From an uncultured virus (IMG/VR IMGVR_UViG_3300011725_000001) (Duplodnaviria; Heunggongvirae; Uroviricota; Caudoviricetes): DNA of 64,000 bases. The stretch is taken from IMG/VR virus record IMGVR_UViG_3300011725_000001, positions 1 through 64,000 of that record, one strand, 5' to 3'. The translations under genes and the position numbers were made by a program. Positions within the stretch are counted from its first letter, which is position 1; the number at the start of each line of letters is the position of its first letter. This document shows, piece by piece, positions 15,320 to 47,082 of this stretch. The notes beneath the pieces were generated by a model that did not search any database, was not told the DNA's origin, and worked only from the letters and a program-made list of their open reading frames with translations.

Positions 15320-15346
15320 AACGCGCTCCGGCGCCGGGGCAGTCTG

Positions 15347-15631
15347 ATGCCTGCCGCCGGCACGCTGGACTCGGTTTGTTCCGGACACGATGGCTTCCCC
15401 TCGCGTCAGACCGCTGAGGCTGACGCGGGGCTCACCATCAACGGCAAGCCCGTGCTGGTGGACGGCAAGCTGTTTCCGGATCACACCGACGGCAGCAGTA
15501 CTCACAACGGCACGGCTGTTACGGGCCGTCCGTGGTTCACCATCAACGGCAAAGGCATTGTGTGCGTCAACGATCCGGTTTCGTGCGGATCGGTGGTCGC
15601 CACGGGCGAAGCCGGATTCGAGGTTAAGTAA
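15347..15631 (+). CDS. upfC: PAAR-like spike tip protein
   Basis: MPAA..DSVCSGH, TINGKPV, H..H..C metal ligands, DPVSCGS. Confidence 0.85.
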   Translation: MPAAGTLDSVCSGHDGFPSRQTAEADAGLTINGKPVLVDGKLFPDHTDGSSTHNGTAVTGRPWFTINGKGIVCVNDPVSCGSVVATGEAGFEVK

Positions 15632-17063: not shown

Positions 17064-17646
17064 ACCTAGAGAATGAATCAACTAACTTAGAGCTAAGATG
17101 CCCCACTTTATCGTTGGTTTCTTTATCCAACGTATATATCCCAAGCACATTGTACAAAGATGAACCCGATTTTCTCAGGTAAAGTATAAATCCGTGGTCT
17201 GGCTTACTTATTAAGTAGCCGGATGCAAACCATGTTAATTCGTTTTTGTAATTAAAAAATTCTGAATGAGTAAAATGGTACTCGCCGTTACCGTTAGTGT
17301 TCAAAAGGTATTCTGCGTTACTTTTTAAATCTTCCTGACTTTGACCAATTACTACACTCAATCCACCAGATATAGTTGGATCATTAAAGGTGCTGACTGG
17401 GTTTCCATTCTCATACTTTGTAGTAATGTTCCAGGAAGAATCCATATAAACTCTGTTGTGAGTAATGGGATTAGTCCAGATTGCCTGATAGTAGCTGCTA
17501 ACTTTCTGATATTGAAATGCTGCCATATCGTTTTGCGCCACCGCTGGTGTGCCAGCGAAGGCAGTTGATGCTAATGCAGCCAGTAGTATGCTTCGGCAGT
17601 AGTTACGATTGGATTTATTTTTATTCTGAGTAGAAATAATAGCCAT
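17062..17646 (-). CDS. AT-rich putative periplasmic protein (moron)
   Basis: Signal peptide RSILLAALASTAFAGTPAVA, low GC; start at MAIIST assumed. Confidence 0.65.
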   Translation of the reverse strand: MAIISTQNKNKSNRNYCRSILLAALASTAFAGTPAVAQNDMAAFQYQKVSSYYQAIWTNPITHNRVYMDSSWNITTKYENGNPVSTFNDPTISGGLSVVIGQSQEDLKSNAEYLLNTNGNGEYHFTHSEFFNYKNELTWFASGYLISKPDHGFILYLRKSGSSLYNVLGIYTLDKETNDKVGHLSSKLVDSFSR

Positions 17647-41293: not shown

Positions 41294-42670
41294 ATGCTTA
41301 ACGAGAAATTAAAGAGCCTGCTGGGCGACGCTGGCAGCATTTTTGCCCTGATTGGGCTCGTTGGTTCACTGCGCAAAACAGAGACCCAAACAGGACGATC
41401 GTCCTACGTCGTGACCGGCAAAGGTCAGGAAGTGAAAACTGCGTTTAAGGTGGTGGATGCCCGCGACCTGATTATTTCAAACAACCTCGACGGCACCATT
41501 AATCCGGCGTTCCCGGCAGAGCTGCAGCCGCGCGACCGCACGCGCATGACCAGTAAAGTGCAGGTTTCAAAAATTGCGGGCAACCTGCGGCCGGCGAAGC
41601 TGACCGATTCCGGCATGAGCAGCCACGGCGCGCCCATCGTGGGCGCGGATAACGTGGTGGAGTCAGGCAACGGGCGCTCAATGGGGATCACGCGCGCTTA
41701 TGAGCAGGGGCAGGCCGATGAATACCGGCAGTACCTGATTGAGCACGCGAAAGACTACGGCCTGAAGGCGTCGGATATTGCGCAGATGGATATGCCCGTG
41801 CTGGTGCGTGAGCGCCTGACGGACGTTGACCGGGCGCAGTTTGCGAAAGACTCCAACCTCTCCGATCTGCAGGAAATGGCGGCGAGCGAAAAGGCGTTTG
41901 TGGATGCGGAAATGCTCGACGAACGCCTGATGGCCATCTTCAATCCGTCCGATGACGGCAACCTGCTGGCGCGCTCAAATGACGGCTATATCCGGGCATT
42001 CATGAAAGAGATAGGCGACACGGCAACAGCAGGCCTGCTGACCGACGACGGGCGCCCGACAAAGCAGCTGATTGACCGCATTCAGAATGCGATCTTTGCC
42101 CGCGCCTATAAGGATGAACGGCTGGTAAAGCTGGTATCTGAGGAACCCGATCCGGATATGCGCAACATCCTGACGGCGCTCAATACCGCTGCCAGTGAGT
42201 TTGCGCAAATGCAGACGCTCTCCGGAGACGTTCACCGCCAGGCTGTTACCGGGCTGGTGGACGGCGTGCAGTCGGTGAATGGGCTGGATCAGCAGGCGAT
42301 AGCCGCGCTGCAGGAGGCGATTAAGCTGGTGCGCCAGGCGAAGGACAGCGGGCAGGCGATACAGGAAGTGCTGGCGCAGCAGGGGCTTTTTGAAGAGGCC
42401 AGCAAAGAGGCCGAAGCCCTGGCGCTGTTTATCGTGGCCAACAACCGCAGCGCGAAGCGGATCGGCGCAGCGTTTAAAAAGATGGCGCAGAAGATCAACG
42501 ACGAGCTATTACACCAGCAGCAGGCGCTGGGGGATATGTTCGGCGGCGGTGAGCTGACGCTGAATGAAGTGCTGACGGCGGTATCAGGAGAAATTGAGGA
42601 GGAATTTGGCGAGGGAAAGGGGTTAAGTTTCGCCATGTTTGAATCTGTCAGCGCGCCGGCAACGAACTAA
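41294..42670 (+). CDS. ddrB: DdrB, N-terminal ParB-like portion only
   Basis: ELQPRDR, SSHGAPIVG and VESGNGR; 458 aa, about half of P1 DdrB. Confidence 0.85.
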   Translation: MLNEKLKSLLGDAGSIFALIGLVGSLRKTETQTGRSSYVVTGKGQEVKTAFKVVDARDLIISNNLDGTINPAFPAELQPRDRTRMTSKVQVSKIAGNLRPAKLTDSGMSSHGAPIVGADNVVESGNGRSMGITRAYEQGQADEYRQYLIEHAKDYGLKASDIAQMDMPVLVRERLTDVDRAQFAKDSNLSDLQEMAASEKAFVDAEMLDERLMAIFNPSDDGNLLARSNDGYIRAFMKEIGDTATAGLLTDDGRPTKQLIDRIQNAIFARAYKDERLVKLVSEEPDPDMRNILTALNTAASEFAQMQTLSGDVHRQAVTGLVDGVQSVNGLDQQAIAALQEAIKLVRQAKDSGQAIQEVLAQQGLFEEASKEAEALALFIVANNRSAKRIGAAFKKMAQKINDELLHQQQALGDMFGGGELTLNEVLTAVSGEIEEEFGEGKGLSFAMFESVSAPATN

Positions 42671-42828
42671 TTTTACTGGTTCATAATATGCGTCAGCTCA
42701 GACTTGAGCTGACGGTTTTCACTGGCTGCAAATCATTAAATTTGACCGTCTGCTTTGAGCGAGGAGCGGACATTCGCCCCTCTGTCGTATGTCCTTAAAG
42801 AGCGCACACCAGATATAAAAGAATTGCG

Positions 42829-44031
42829 TTAGTGTACCTTCCTATTTTGACGAGATGTTGCATATGTCATCACTACCGCCCCCAGTAGTAACAAACCACT
42901 TAAACCAAATGCACTTCTCCATCCCAGACTGTCGAATGCCAGACCTCCAGCCGTTGAACCAAGCGCAATCGATAGCTGGATCACCGCAACCATGAGGCCA
43001 CCACCCCTCTCTGCATCTTCGGGTAACGCTCGTGCTATCCATGTCCACCATCCTGTTGGCGCAGCCGTCGCAAGTAGCCCCCACAGGCTTAATAATACGG
43101 CAACGGCCCAGATGTGGTGTCCGACCAGCAGTAACGCACCAGTAATCGCGGCCATAAGCAACGGGATCATGATTAAGGTCTTGTAAAATTTGGCGTTCAG
43201 GAATGTTGAGACGATCATTGTGCCGACAAAACCTGCTATGCCTATTGCAAGCAAAATCAGAGAAAGGTTAGAAGGTCCCACTCTGGTGACGCTCTCCAGA
43301 AAGGGGCGCACGTAGGTAAACAAAGCAAACTGTCCCATAAAGAAGAGCCCGCAGGCAAGCATTCCCGTTGGTACGATGGCAACGCTGAACAGACGAAGCA
43401 CAGACCCCTGTGGTTTTTGTGTTTTATCGCTTTCCATTGAAGGCAGGCTGAACCATTGCCAGAAGAACGCAGCTATCGCAAGAGGGACGAGACATAAAAA
43501 GGCCCCACGCCAACCGACCGTTGTCCCCAGATAACTACCAAGCGGCGCAGCCACAACGGTGGCCAGCGCGTTACCGCCGTTAAAAATTGCCAGTGCGCGG
43601 GGAACCTGGTGCTGTGGCACGAGCCGAATGGCGGTTGCAGCCGACATTGACCAGAACCCTCCGATGACGACGCCAATCAGAGCCCTCCCCAGCATATAAA
43701 TCGGATAGTCAGGCGCCATGGTGATAACTAACCCTGATATGGCCATTAAGACCGTTAGCCCAAGCAGAAGATATTTACGATTCAGGTCTCCGGCAATATG
43801 GGAGATAGTCAGACTGGTCAGCACTGCCAGTGCGCCAGAGACGGCAATTCCTTGCCCTGCCAACCCTTCGGTAACGTGCAAATCGCGGGCAATGAGCGTA
43901 AGCAGGCTGACTGGCATAAACTCAGAAGCGATCAGCACAAACACGCAAAGCGTCATGGCAAATACGCCGCTCCAGTATGCATGCTTTTTTTCGTATGATG
44001 GTTTTAGACTTACAGTAGACATTATTAGCAT
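42829..44031 (-). CDS. MFS transporter (NepI/DHA1-like)
   Basis: About 12 TM segments, ASEFMPVSLL, GRALIG, GWRGAF. Confidence 0.93.
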   Translation of the reverse strand: MLIMSTVSLKPSYEKKHAYWSGVFAMTLCVFVLIASEFMPVSLLTLIARDLHVTEGLAGQGIAVSGALAVLTSLTISHIAGDLNRKYLLLGLTVLMAISGLVITMAPDYPIYMLGRALIGVVIGGFWSMSAATAIRLVPQHQVPRALAIFNGGNALATVVAAPLGSYLGTTVGWRGAFLCLVPLAIAAFFWQWFSLPSMESDKTQKPQGSVLRLFSVAIVPTGMLACGLFFMGQFALFTYVRPFLESVTRVGPSNLSLILLAIGIAGFVGTMIVSTFLNAKFYKTLIMIPLLMAAITGALLLVGHHIWAVAVLLSLWGLLATAAPTGWWTWIARALPEDAERGGGLMVAVIQLSIALGSTAGGLAFDSLGWRSAFGLSGLLLLGAVVMTYATSRQNRKVH

Positions 44032-44199
44032 CCCTTAATATCGAACCAGCCAGATTCAGGCGCAGTCGGGTCAGAAGTTATTCAGGGAATAACGACATAA
44101 TAGGTGGGTGAGAATATGGGGCGATGTGACATATTCTGCGTCACACCAGGCAGGTAAAAGCCACCCGTTTATGACAGGTGGCCTGGTAAACCTTTCGGG

Positions 44200-45336
44200 T
44201 TACCTTAAGTTTGCTTTGAAAAATTGCTCAAATTTGGCAAATGGGATCTTACCCGCAACGTTGTCGTACAGATCAACATGGTTTGCCCCAGGGACAATCA
44301 CTAACTCTTTCTCTTTGCTGCCGATTGCCTTAAAGGCATCTTCAGCAAAATAGCGTGAATGGGCTTTTTCGCCGGTCACGATGAGTGTAGGGATAGTAAC
44401 TTCATTGGCGTAACTCAGCAGCGGCATATTCATAAATGACAGCGGCATGGTTGCATTCCAGGCACCGGTTGAGTTGACCGAACGCTCATGGAAACCACGC
44501 GGCATGCGGTAATAATCAAAGAACTCTTTCAATACTGGGTTAGGATTCGCGGGCAGAGTTTCCGGCAGAATACGATCGGAAGCGGTGACGTTGCCCTTCT
44601 CATCAACATAAATGTCATGCCCGCCTGGCGCGAAAGCGCCATTTTCCGCATCCTTCCAGCGCTGCTTGTTCAGATACTGCAATACGGCACGACGATCGGC
44701 AGTGGTATAGCGGTCTTTGCCATCGCCCACGCCATGCCCCATCGCACGGCTCATGTCATACATCACGCTGGTCGCCACCGCCTTGACACGCGTGTCCATC
44801 GCGGCGTCGTTTAAGGCCATGCCGCCCCATCCGCAGATACCGAGCAGCCCGATACGGTTGCGATCCACCTCTTTTTGCAGGCCTAAGAAATCAACCGCCG
44901 CGCTGAAATCCTCGGTGTTGATATCCGGAGATGCGACGTTGCGCGGGTAGCCGCCGCTTTCGCCCGTGTATGAAGGGTCGAAAGCCAGAGTGACAAATCC
45001 CTGTTCAGCCAGCGTCTGCGCATACAGGCCGCTGGATTGCTCTTTCACCGCCCCGAAGGGGCCGCTAACAGCAATAGCTGCCAGCTTGCGATCCCCACGA
45101 TCCTTCGGGATGTAGAGATCCCCGACTAAGGTGATCCCGTATCGGTTCGGAAAGGTCACCTTACGGTGATCAACTTTCGTGCTCTCAGCAAAAGTTTTAT
45201 CCCATTTCTCGACCAGCGAAACGGGCGCGTTCGGATTGGCTGTATCAGCGTAACTCATATTTGTGACTCCACTTAATGATGCGCATAACAACAGGGCGGG
45301 TATCGCAGTTGTCAATTTTTGGGTGAAAGCAGTCAT
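44200..45336 (-). CDS. Alpha/beta hydrolase (YcjY-like) with probable signal peptide
   Basis: GPFGAVKEQ, FDPSYTGESGG, nucleophile elbow GICGWGG, HVDLYD; start at MTAFTQ assumed. Confidence 0.9.
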   Translation of the reverse strand: MTAFTQKLTTAIPALLLCASLSGVTNMSYADTANPNAPVSLVEKWDKTFAESTKVDHRKVTFPNRYGITLVGDLYIPKDRGDRKLAAIAVSGPFGAVKEQSSGLYAQTLAEQGFVTLAFDPSYTGESGGYPRNVASPDINTEDFSAAVDFLGLQKEVDRNRIGLLGICGWGGMALNDAAMDTRVKAVATSVMYDMSRAMGHGVGDGKDRYTTADRRAVLQYLNKQRWKDAENGAFAPGGHDIYVDEKGNVTASDRILPETLPANPNPVLKEFFDYYRMPRGFHERSVNSTGAWNATMPLSFMNMPLLSYANEVTIPTLIVTGEKAHSRYFAEDAFKAIGSKEKELVIVPGANHVDLYDNVAGKIPFAKFEQFFKANLR

Positions 45337-45497
45337 CAAAATCCCCTTCATAAAACGTGCCAGAAACAGGTTTCCTACGGACAACGCTGCTGTGCTTTGT
45401 TGCAATGCGCACATTATAGTTAGCAGAAATAGTACTGATTAGAGGGTGAAAAATGCTAAGATTGATAACATATTGTTCTGAATTGTGATGCGGCAGC

Positions 45498-46394
45498 ATG
45501 GGAAGGATGATGGCGAAACGGGAAAACTATAACGATCTCTATCTGTTTATGCAGGTCGTGCGAGAAGGGAGTTTTACTGCCGCCGCGCAGAGGCTTGGCC
45601 TGGCGCAGTCAGGAATTAGTCGTGCAGTGCGCGAGCTGGAAGAACGACTGGGCGTGCAGCTTCTGGTGCGTACCACGCGCAAGTTATCGCTCACCCATGC
45701 CGGCGAGTTGCTCTATCGAACCGTCGAATCTGGATTTGACGCTTTAGATATGGGGCTTGCCACGCTGGCCCATTATCGCCATACCCCATCGGGTACGGTC
45801 CGTATTAATGCCAGTCAGCACGCCATTGATAAAGTGCTGCTGCCGAAGCTGGCGGTGTTTAAACAACGCTACCCAGATATTCGGCTGGAGCTCATCAGCG
45901 AAAGCCGGTTTGTCGATATTATTGCTGAGCGCTTCGATGCCGGTATACGTCTGGGCTCGGAAGTAGGTAGCGGTATGGTCGCTGTGCGCATTTCGCCCGA
46001 TATGGAGATGGCCGTTGTCGGCACGCCCGAGCACTTTCGTCGCTACGGATTTCCGCAAACTCCCTCCGATTTAGTTATTCATCCCTGCATCGCTTACCAG
46101 TTTGGAGACGGCAGCCTGTATGCATGGGAACTCAATCAAGACGGTAAAAAGATAACCCATCAGCCTCAGGGACAATGGGCCTTTGCTGACAGCTATATGG
46201 AAGCCAAAGCAGCCCGGCTAGGCCTGGGACTGGCTTATGTTCCGGAGGAATTAGTTTCTGATGATATAGAACAGGGGGCGCTGATCAGAGTTTTGCAATG
46301 CTACAGTCAGCGCCTGGAAGGTTCATATATCTATTATCCGCACCGCAATGTGTCACCCGCTCTAAGAGCGGTTATCGATACATTGAGAATTTAA
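45498..46394 (+). CDS. LysR-family regulator, divergent
   Basis: GSFTAAAQRLG...ELEERLGVQLLVRTTRKLSLT HTH plus substrate-binding domain. Confidence 0.95.
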   Translation: MGRMMAKRENYNDLYLFMQVVREGSFTAAAQRLGLAQSGISRAVRELEERLGVQLLVRTTRKLSLTHAGELLYRTVESGFDALDMGLATLAHYRHTPSGTVRINASQHAIDKVLLPKLAVFKQRYPDIRLELISESRFVDIIAERFDAGIRLGSEVGSGMVAVRISPDMEMAVVGTPEHFRRYGFPQTPSDLVIHPCIAYQFGDGSLYAWELNQDGKKITHQPQGQWAFADSYMEAKAARLGLGLAYVPEELVSDDIEQGALIRVLQCYSQRLEGSYIYYPHRNVSPALRAVIDTLRI

Positions 46395-46535
46395 GGGATA
46401 AAGATGAGGTGGTTCGCAGGCCTGGGTAATAGTTGAAAAACAACGTCCGCTCCTGGCACAAAGCGGACTGCAGGTGCTTAATGCCCGCTATGAGCTAACA
46501 CACAATGGCCGCATCATGCGGCTTTTCTTCCCACC

Positions 46536-46558
46536 GCAAATTACAAACTCCATAAAGT
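46536..46558 (+). promoter_or_regulatory. Putative late promoter (endolysin)
   Basis: GCAAATTACAAAC-N4-TAAAGT. Confidence 0.78.
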
Positions 46559-46590
46559 CCCGCTCTCAATAATTACAGAGTGGTATCACA

Positions 46591-47082
46591 ATGGAGCAAT
46601 CCGCAAACCGTAAAGCCTTTGGCGACATGCTGGCGTTCTCAGAAGGCACCAGTACTCACCCATTAACCCGCATGCGTGGCTATGACGTTATCGTGACCGG
46701 GCTGGGCGACAAGCTGGGCGAAATATTCACTGACTTCACCGATCACCCGTTCACAAATCGCAGCCCGAAAAAACTCAATAAGCATGGTCTGGCCTCGACT
46801 GCAGCAGGGCGTTATCAGCAGCTTTACCGCTACTGGCCGGTTTACAAAAAACAGCTGAAACTGCCCGACTTCAGCCCCGTGTCACAGGAGCGCTTGCTTG
46901 ACCAGCTGCTGAAAGAGCAGGGCGCGTATGCCGACGTTCACGCCGGACGAATCCGCACGGCCATTGGCAAAACCAACGATATCTGGGCGTCGCTCACTGG
47001 ATCGCCGTATGGTCAGAAAACGCACGCGCTTGAAACGCTGCTGACTGCCTATCGTGATGCTGGTGGGACAGTTACCGATTAA
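46591..47082 (+). CDS. Lambda-R-type endolysin (lytic transglycosylase)
   Basis: RKAFGDMLAFSEGT, GYDVIV, STAAGRYQ, LPDFSPVSQ, IWASL..SPYGQ. Confidence 0.93.
   Translation: MEQSANRKAFGDMLAFSEGTSTHPLTRMRGYDVIVTGLGDKLGEIFTDFTDHPFTNRSPKKLNKHGLASTAAGRYQQLYRYWPVYKKQLKLPDFSPVSQERLLDQLLKEQGAYADVHAGRIRTAIGKTNDIWASLTGSPYGQKTHALETLLTAYRDAGGTVTD

Follow-up and report, generated by a model that had tools for sequence, protein, structure and literature searches.

Inward-facing sites of two types bound a cargo slot in a P1-like phage-plasmid and point to cassette exchange within the site centres

How does a block of three bacterial-type genes come to lie between ddrB and the endolysin gene of a phage-plasmid, and what would move it? 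The question is raised by a 64-kb stretch of DNA from an uncultured virus (IMG/VR record IMGVR_UViG_3300011725_000001, positions 1 to 64,000; hereafter the window), which is the first part of a viral record that is 93,023 bp long and has direct terminal repeats. The initial annotation of this DNA had recognised the block as MFS transporter, hydrolase and LysR genes without an integrase or transposase, and the content in open reading frames (ORFs) and Pfam domains confirmed this: three ORFs only lie between the boundary repeats, and Pfam found no recombinase or transposase in the cassette. We propose that the locus is a cargo slot with two inward-facing, heterospecific sites, at which a recombinase acting in trans would exchange cassettes within the site centres, like with like. 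We put the probability of this reading at roughly 0.6.

The boundary repeats were the starting point. A 24-bp unit had been described at each end of the block (42748-42771 and 46445-46468), and both units are indeed present, inverted relative to each other and different at 3 of 24 positions. A repeat finder extended the pair to 27 nt (42748-42774 and 46442-46468, 85% complementarity) and ranked it as the longest inverted pair of the region. The units are also self-complementary as described, with 7-bp arms around 10 nt, though folding of the single-stranded DNA is weak (-3.2 and -6.4 kcal/mol). The left site consists of an outer arm (42748-42756), a centre (42757-42762) and an inner arm followed by ATT (42763-42774). 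The right site is inverted with respect to it, and homology to relatives that have the same slot restarts at 46441-46442.

These two units belong to a family of sites with the 24-27-nt consensus GTCYGCT-N-TGWGCSA-RR-AGCGGAC-RTT. The layout is 9-6-9: a 6-nt asymmetric centre is flanked by the inverted arms GTCYGCTNT and RRAGCGGAC(RTT). Conservation covers 24 nt and the RTT that follows on the cargo side; beyond this block it is weak. An exact scan with a degenerate pattern spanning both window units (GTCYGCTNTGWGCSARRAGCGGAC) revealed at least 136 loci in the viral collection and at least 133 among species-representative genomes, against a chance expectation, by our own arithmetic, of roughly 0.4 and 2 matches, respectively. 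The reversed pattern, used as a control, gave 0 matches in the genome of the window and 0 in five bacterial genomes with 4-73 real matches each. The 93-kb genome contains four sites, three of which match the pattern exactly and the fourth with 3 mismatches. A position-weight matrix found the same four sites only, and no site of 5 bits or more in 5 shuffles of the sequence. With this matrix, a degenerate copy that had been noted at 42789-42816 did not qualify as a site, even when the threshold was set at 2 bits. Four enteric genomes contain 8, 22, 4 and 19 sites (at most 3 mismatches), clustered in few regions. Across the loci examined, the sites consistently bracket variable cargo, as the initial annotation had anticipated.

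The centres are of two discrete kinds, TGAGCGA (type 1) and TGTGCCA (type 2), which differ at 2 of 6 positions. Among the matches listed, 141 sites are unique, of which 80 have the centre A..G, 60 have T..C and 1 is mixed. Length and the two centres are exact, without insertions or deletions, in hundreds of sites. In the listed loci with long flanks, convergent pairs flank 319-5359 nt of cargo (median 1442). Type 1 is paired with type 2 in 47 of 49 non-redundant convergent pairs from the listed loci; the remaining 2 have an unclassifiable centre, and 0 are homotypic. Between neighbouring cassettes, which stand head to tail, there is a short spacer; it measures 18 nt in seven of 12 short divergent junctions, 16 nt in two, and 15, 0 and 49 nt in one each.

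Is the block between the sites a unit that occurs in other places? The MFS-hydrolase-LysR cassette was found in a 33.7-kb Yersinia P2-like phage with 93% identity over 42735-46470, where it sits between the tail-fibre assembly and tail-sheath genes (the G/FI slot), and in an 80-kb Kosakonia cowanii plasmid with 99.6% identity over 42748-46462, amid further sites. A copy with 84% identity is present in a Klebsiella chromosome. We also searched 24 public sequencing runs as assembled contigs, in which circles, rare joints and frequencies are not visible. In one contig of an isolate species, unrelated flanks enclose exactly 42748-46466. In another organism, a contig with the slot of the window's backbone contains an array whose middle unit is the cassette, in the order left flank, site, 1064 nt of other cargo, site, 9 nt, site, cassette, about 1.9 kb, site, right flank. 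The cassette is thus found in unrelated replicons with its borders at the sites, which bears out the earlier description of a cargo block bounded by specific inverted repeats.

Some joints in the sequencing runs read differently. Joints from 42771-42777 to 46440-46445 in a phyllosphere metagenome have undefined letters in between and may simply represent other cargo. Joints from 46468 to 42749 (19 letters between) and from 46468 to 42743 (9 between) are array junctions or site matches that any cassette would give; they were considered as proof of a circle and rejected, because array junctions or any-cassette matches suffice to explain them.

Conversely, the same slot holds other cargo in related backbones. 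All eight slot relatives, two Pantoea plasmids and six viral contigs, are homologous to the window up to 42771-42774 and then diverge. The slot of Pantoea agglomerans pFC61912-B_D (L005:10665-16554) carries an ImmA/IrrE peptidase, a thymidylate synthase, a restriction endonuclease and a hydrolase, and that of Pantoea eucalypti pEuc3 (L006:13037-13669) a Vat-family streptogramin A acetyltransferase. At least six different cargo starts occur in the P1-like backbone copies, and 15-16 cargo groups in the P2 G/FI slot. A lambdoid slot with the same site pair was confirmed as well, in the order cII-O-P-ren-[slot]-hok-nin.

Further observations were made on these slots. Resistance-type and defence-type genes are both found in the ddrB-endolysin slot. 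One lambdoid slot (L024:4001-5490), between ren and a hok/mokW-like gene, contains NUDIX-like and HAD-like hydrolase cargo, and at least eight different cargos are present in the ren-hok lambdoid context among the listed viral loci. In the Kosakonia plasmid (NZ_CP107078, L002:5261-13062), a six-site run delimits a DUF523 gene, the MFS-hydrolase-LysR cassette and a block of aldo/keto reductase and AraC genes, after which comes lpxP; the first site is preceded, 1.8 kb upstream, by a tyrosine recombinase gene.

Where within a site does one cargo give way to another? The left-site alignment included the window and seven of the eight slot relatives, the remaining one (L079) not being picked up by the anchor. 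In all eight backbone copies, the outer arm and centre, GTCTGCTTT-GAGCGA, are identical, whereas the inner arm varies with the cargo: it reads GG, AA or GA, then AGCGGAC, and then ATT, TTA, GTC, GCT or GTT. The Yersinia phage and Kosakonia plasmid copies have the inner-arm start of the window (GGAG) and the adjacent cargo, with their own outer flanks. We then compared pairs of sites for agreement at the variable positions, i.e., positions 3 and 7 of the outer arm versus 15, 16 and 24 of the inner arm. In the phage set (98 unique sites without a neighbouring site in the outer flank), 323 pairs with the same context and different cargo agreed in 99% and 94% at the outer positions and in 45%, 45% and 33% at the inner ones. 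The unrelated background (1931 pairs) gave 48% and 38% for the outer and 50%, 46% and 34% for the inner positions. The 4 pairs with the same cargo in different contexts agreed in 25% and 50% at the outer positions and in 100%, 100% and 100% at the inner positions. The direction of this pattern was alike in every phage-set slot listed. In a wider set of 325 sites, 495 pairs with the same context and different cargo gave 93% and 89% (outer) and 48%, 52% and 35% (inner), and 18 pairs with the same cargo in different contexts gave 44% and 33% (outer) and 67%, 72% and 72% (inner). The same cassette also occurs in different slots with swapped outer arms, for example in the locus pairs L026/L058 and L030/L133. 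The backbone keeps its outer arm and the cargo brings its inner arm along, and the exchange point therefore falls in the centre, between positions 7 and 15. Judged from these alignments, it is within the central 6-7 nt of the site.

Inverted arms around a short asymmetric centre of exchange are the arrangement seen in the core-type site of a conservative site-specific recombinase, most like that of a tyrosine recombinase. The slot sites have this layout, with two inverted arms around a 6-nt asymmetric centre and the exchange mapped there. From this we infer the chemistry, a circular intermediate and the kind of enzyme as follows. A recombinase supplied in trans would cut and rejoin DNA inside the site centre, and type 1 would recombine solely with type 1 and type 2 solely with type 2. 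A cassette would be exchanged between any two replicons bearing the site pair, or would be added beside a resident one via a circle with a '<type 2 - 16-18 nt - type 1>' joint. Its own two ends would neither excise nor invert it. Because the centres differ at two of the six positions, the two ends of a cassette would not recombine with each other, but each could recombine with its like. This heterospecific-site logic would explain the fixed orientation, the strict pairing, the swapped outer arms and the head-to-tail arrays with a constant joint. Considering that the cassette has no enzyme of its own, the mover must act in trans, as had been supposed initially, and a host enzyme or a widely shared mobile enzyme is implied.

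Several points weigh against this proposal. The pairs used in the arm comparison are not independent and come mainly from three slot families, namely the P2 G/FI slot, the lambdoid ren-hok slot and the P1-like slot, and the class with the same cargo in another context is small (4 and 18 pairs). No recombinase was identified, and across 80 genome loci no gene is recurrent at a distance of up to 3 kb from the sites. The sole PF00589 match in the 93-kb genome is a Cre-like gene at 77879-78424, about 31 kb away; it is distant from both slots. An Xer-like gene of 354 aa that lies near a site in one Nitrosomonadaceae genome is without a close enteric homologue (best E 1e-12 to 1e-17 in three genomes). 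The circular form and the exchange events were not observed directly, the data being assembled contigs only. The paired positions 3/20 are asymmetric, with T.G in 45 sites versus C.A in 7, which would also suit a strand-specific hairpin. Finally, the breakpoints relative to site-less relatives lie outside the sites, by 104 and 38 nt at the ddrB slot and by 65 and 55 nt at a second slot of the same genome, so that site-specific exchange does not explain how the slots originated.

How, then, did the slot arise? In the site-less plasmids pPSP-26e and pPA-MXU-90, a 970-aa ddrB and a 100-aa ORF are found at the position of the slot. Their homology to the window ends at 42643-42645, and the segment 42644-46506 of the window replaces 1871 nt comprising the C-terminal half of the 970-aa ddrB and the 100-aa ORF. 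The view that the genes had been inserted between ddrB and the endolysin gene was therefore correct as to gene order, but not as to a plain insertion. The DNA that is new in the window relative to the site-less plasmids includes a new ddrB end, a terminator, both sites and a half-site. Likewise, the suspected agreement between breakpoints and repeats was found in comparison with relatives carrying other cargo, but not with the site-less relatives, where the breakpoints lie 38-104 nt outside. From these comparisons, the slots seem to have been seeded by illegitimate replacement, in which the sites arrived along with a further 38-104 nt of flanking DNA. P1-like and P2-like slots resemble each other in about 9 nt that adjoin the left site on its outer side, a hint that the seed came from another phage's slot. 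Two forms of ddrB exist in this phage-plasmid family, one of 970 aa (L004:2494-5406) and one of 458 aa; the short form always accompanies the slot, and its last 27 nt are not homologous to the long form.

The extra 38-104 nt beyond the sites and the similar 9 nt outside the left site could also be taken as signs of a non-autonomous transposon (a mobile insertion cassette or miniature inverted-repeat transposable element), in which the sites are terminal inverted repeats and the transposase is encoded elsewhere; inverted terminal repeats without an internal enzyme would agree with this. We regard such an element as improbable. A transposon end would move whole, whereas here the outer arm stays and the inner arm goes. 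The end types always differ (the 47 of 49 pairs, with 0 homotypic, described above), and no transposase is recurrent near the 80 genome loci. Target duplication is absent at both slots of the genome; its absence had already been noted for the ddrB slot and was confirmed in the comparisons with relatives. At the second slot, the similarity of the two ends is confined to 27 nt, without an extended terminal repeat.

The mapped exchange point also bears on the mechanism favoured initially, in which the sites act as folded single-strand hairpins, attC-like or REP/IS200/IS605-like, and an integron integrase or a Y1-HUH enzyme is supplied in trans. Such enzymes cut beside or within the stem, whereas here the exchange occurs in the loop or centre. 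Each site is self-complementary, and T.G is tolerated far above C.A at one stem position (45 versus 7), as a hairpin would allow. A '<type 2 - 18 nt - type 1>' junction could fold into a 66-nt imperfect hairpin of attC size, and the same-orientation arrays of small ORFs in a Nitrosomonadaceae genome, split by a 34-nt palindromic site, resemble what such a system would produce. However, the stems have 7 bp, the loops 10 nt, and folding is weak. Y1-HUH (PF01797) was found in one of five site-bearing genomes and is missing from the other four, including the genome with 73 copies; no integron integrase exceeded the cut-off next to the arrays examined. The enteric genomes contain 4-22 copies, not the hundreds typical of REP. 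With the exchange point in the centre, the weak hairpins, the single genome with PF01797 and no adjacent integron integrase, the attC-like or REP/RAYT-like mechanism was not upheld, and we consider it to have little chance of being correct.

Which enzyme might serve the sites? We clustered 728 ORFs from the 80 genome loci, and the largest families were present in 9, 7, 6, 6 and 5 loci. They are LysR, ABC substrate-binding protein, SDR, aldo-keto reductase and MFS families, which are cargo types, not DNA-exchange enzymes. The co-occurrence of the repeats with a recombinase or HUH gene, which the initial annotation had expected, was not seen: none is recurrent at these loci, and PF01797 is present in the one genome of five. 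In the Nitrosomonadaceae genome, tyrosine recombinases lie near some arrays, and the Xer-like gene mentioned above (L284 12233-13297) ends 61 nt from a degenerate site. Recombinase remnants adjoin sites in Erwinia and in one alphaproteobacterial genome, where the genes are broken. A small serine recombinase was considered as partner and rejected, as it occurs in 3 distinct loci only (4 matches, two of them from overlapping loci of one contig) of 174. To our knowledge, P2-like phages with slots would have only their own integrase.

That several searches ended without a cognate recombinase raises the possibility that there is no dedicated enzyme, and that the palindromes are recombinase-independent joining hot spots that persist by carrying cargo along. 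The routes would be replication template switching, breakage at cruciform centres or short-homology recombination by a phage annealing protein. The origin of the slots by illegitimate replacement would be in line with this, as would the role of palindrome centres as break points in other systems. Nevertheless, length and centres are exact in hundreds of sites, which points to precise conservative exchange, and the crossovers are confined to positions 8-14 rather than being spread over the 24-nt homology. The strict pairing of type 1 with type 2 would have no obvious reason under random breakage. We therefore think that enzyme-free joining is unlikely and retain a recombinase acting in trans on the site centres as the preferred explanation.

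The features of the region are collected in Table 1, and several of them adjoin the sites. The perfect hairpin at 42691-42714, which had been counted as part of the cassette, does exist, but it is also present in the pFC61912-B_D and pEuc3 loci (L005 and L006), relatives with other cargo, and therefore belongs to the backbone outside the cassette; it is likely the ddrB terminator. A second degenerate copy, noted at 46481-46495, is derived from a site, but it is a half type-1 site (46484-46496) rather than a full one and stays below full-site status in the position-weight scan. Situated 15 nt beyond the right site, it is kept in L005 and L006, the two backbone relatives aligned. This position fits a short-spacer junction between neighbouring cassettes, and the half-site is a probable remnant of such a cassette-cassette junction. 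As for the cargo, the first gene is labelled nepI or MFS transporter where the cassette occurs in the Yersinia phage and in the Kosakonia plasmid, and the longest ORF of the second gene has 404 aa, with 352-378 aa annotated in relatives.

Table 1. Features in and around the ddrB-endolysin slot (window positions)
Feature	Positions	Strand	Evidence
Short ddrB (458 aa), left neighbour of slot	41294..42670	+	Pfam ddrB-ParB, E 1.9e-42
Perfect terminator-like hairpin, backbone	42691..42714	+	10-bp stem then GTTTT; -11.1 kcal/mol
Left boundary site, type 1, centre GAGCGA	42748..42774	+	Position-weight score 46.5
Cargo gene 1, MFS transporter, 400 aa	42829..44031	-	Pfam MFS_1, E 1.4e-38
Cargo gene 2, alpha/beta hydrolase	44200..45414	-	Pfam PETase-like, Hydrolase_4 and DLH matches; annotations of relatives
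Cargo gene 3, LysR-family regulator, 298 aa	45498..46394	+	Pfam LysR_substrate, E 6.4e-35; HTH_1, E 6.9e-24
Right boundary site, type 2, centre GTGCCA read inward	46442..46468	-	Position-weight score 44.9
First half of type-1 site, incomplete	46484..46496	+	12/13 positions equal to type-1 outer arm and centre
Terminator-like hairpin common to all relatives	46507..46523	+	Homology of site-less relatives restarts here
Endolysin, 163 aa, right neighbour of slot	46591..47082	+	No Pfam match; orthologues annotated as lysozyme / glycoside hydrolase family 104

Since the sites stand at gene borders and adjoin terminators, they might be regulatory hairpins that serve as transcriptional insulators or terminators where foreign genes begin and end, with borders that merely tolerate ordinary recombination. 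When the right site is read inward, a T-rich run comes after it, and the site received a terminator-like score. Across the family, however, a T-run after the site is not conserved, only RTT, and Rfam gave no match over 42600-46600 at E up to 1. Two types, the arm swap and the fixed 16-18-nt junctions would be left without explanation, and we consider a purely regulatory role very improbable.

The genome has a second slot outside the window, at 66870-69995, with a type-1 and a type-2 site at 66870-66893 and 69972-69995. It lies between the Tad2-like (anti-Thoeris) gene and lpa and contains a 237-aa ORF and a 609-aa ORC/Cdc6-like AAA ATPase with a C-terminal zinc ribbon. At this position pPSP-26e has 49 nt where the genome of the window has 3246 nt, with neither a site nor a duplication. 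The gene pair could be an undescribed defence pair; PADLOC gave no match for these two proteins, nor for the three cargo proteins of the ddrB slot.

What kind of genome carries these slots? Gene annotation places DarA, a ddrA-like ORF, the ddrB-ParB protein and the endolysin around the cassette, and genes for a Tad2-like protein, for Lpa (the late promoter activator) and for ParM are found farther along. The genome is a Pantoea-type P1-like phage-plasmid. In the plasmid collection, its nearest backbones belong to non-mobilizable plasmids of 87-95 kb, which carry the label Pantoea except for one labelled Acinetobacter. The latter, a 95.6-kb plasmid (CP060164.1, label Acinetobacter venetianus), matches the backbone of Pantoea pPSP-26e. 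The two gave identical scores at both searched regions (97.2% and 96.1%), and CP060164.1 either comes from a host of another family or is a record affected by mislabelling or contamination.

Related sites extend beyond the enteric genomes. A 2.2-Mb Nitrosomonadaceae genome contains 73 sites, all of type 2, in the form of a 34-nt palindrome with the layout 14-6-14 and the centre GTGCCA. They stand mostly in same-orientation runs between small accessory-type ORFs, which encode glyoxalase, CMD, methyltransferase, GDSL lipase, ankyrin and Sel1 proteins. These arrays look integron-like, but are without an integron integrase. In soil Alphaproteobacteria (Pseudolabrys, Xanthobacteraceae), tandem sites with shared arms and other centres were observed; the second site lies about 18 nt upstream in the same orientation and has the centre ACCCCC or GGGTCA. 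This comparison of centres suggests more centre classes than the two seen in enteric phages.

Whether all this amounts to a widespread, natural, integron-independent form of cassette exchange among Enterobacterales phages, plasmids and islands, carried out by an as-yet-unrecognised and possibly host housekeeping recombinase, is a more tentative matter, and we would give it slightly less than an even chance. If true, P1-like phage-plasmids, P2-like and lambdoid prophages, plasmids and Enterobacterales chromosomal islands would exchange accessory and defence genes with one another, and related single-type arrays would reach Nitrosomonadaceae and soil Alphaproteobacteria. Temperate phages have been mined heavily for anti-phage defence genes at their variable hotspots, and the route of cargo exchange has mostly been left open. 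Two site types and an exchange point in the centre lead to testable rules on which sites recombine and what the circular joint looks like, and the site signature can be used to find slots and delimit cassettes in any genome. Discovery of the enzyme would explain gene flow among phages, plasmids and chromosomes, including that of resistance and defence genes.

How do these slots compare with known systems? Promoter-stem-loop cassettes (PeSL) of T4-type phages were reportedly described by Arbiol, Comeau and Krisch in 2010 and are reported to act by homologous recombination between repeated regulatory elements. As in the slots described here, short stem-loop elements border shuffled accessory genes in phage plasticity regions, but the sequence and the host phages differ. 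REP/RAYT elements and IS200/IS605-derived elements are likewise short, GC-rich intergenic palindromes of two kinds, sometimes arranged head to head. REP elements have a high chromosomal copy number and a RAYT gene, whereas the slot sites have a low copy number in enteric genomes, with PF01797 in one of five genomes. The end hairpins of IS200/IS605 have the same orientation and move whole, whereas the slot ends are inverted and their palindrome halves segregate with different neighbours. Integron cassettes share with the slot cassettes that they are promoter-poor accessory cassettes in arrays, free of an enzyme and with a palindromic boundary. Integron attC sites, however, measure about 57-141 nt, have paired R and L boxes and recombine within the R box, in contrast to 24-27 nt and exchange in the centre here. 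An integron also has intI beside the array, whereas the genome of the window has no adjacent intI and each cassette has two inverted sites.

The pdif modules of Acinetobacter plasmids carry recombinase-free cargo between inverted site pairs of the arm-centre-arm kind, with XerC/XerD acting in trans. Recombinase-free modules in many plasmid contexts are common to both; here each cassette owns two sites, and neighbours stand 16-18 nt apart rather than having a site in common. The slot sites are not known to resemble dif. In the laboratory, recombinase-mediated cassette exchange uses heterospecific lox or FRT sites, which have the same arms and different asymmetric 6-8-bp centres. The likeness is in logic only, namely exchange between molecules without excision or inversion; the sites of the window are natural and form arrays with 16-18-nt joints.

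A text search of the literature with 9-10-letter pieces of the site gave unrelated primer matches only, and a search on cassette exchange in prophage hotspots gave nothing relevant among the titles and abstracts listed. A text search for hairpins, inverted repeats, palindromes and stem-loops gave no match in Rousset et al. 2022 or in the iLund4u preprint. The closest precedent is phage P2, in which the position-weight matrix found two sites only, bracketing fun(Z): a type 2 site at 15335-15358 (32.1 bits) and a type 1 site at 17432-17455 (21.4 bits). According to a review (PMC8987985), the inverted repeats flanking Z/fun of P2-like coliphages were described, and site-specific recombination was proposed for them, by Nilsson, Karlsson and Haggard-Ljungquist (2004, Mol Biol Evol 21:1). 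The P2 Z/fun slots have the same site family and, as here, variable and unrelated cargo between the repeats in related genomes; they lie between the tail genes G and FI, whereas the slot of the window lies between ddrB and the endolysin gene. By sequence comparison, then, the boundary repeats are already known from the flanks of P2 fun(Z), the window contains a further case of such a slot, and boundary sites of this type also organise the cargo slots of a P1-like phage-plasmid. The P1-like phage-plasmid host with two slots, the two-type rule, the mapping of the exchange point and the reach beyond Enterobacterales may be new.

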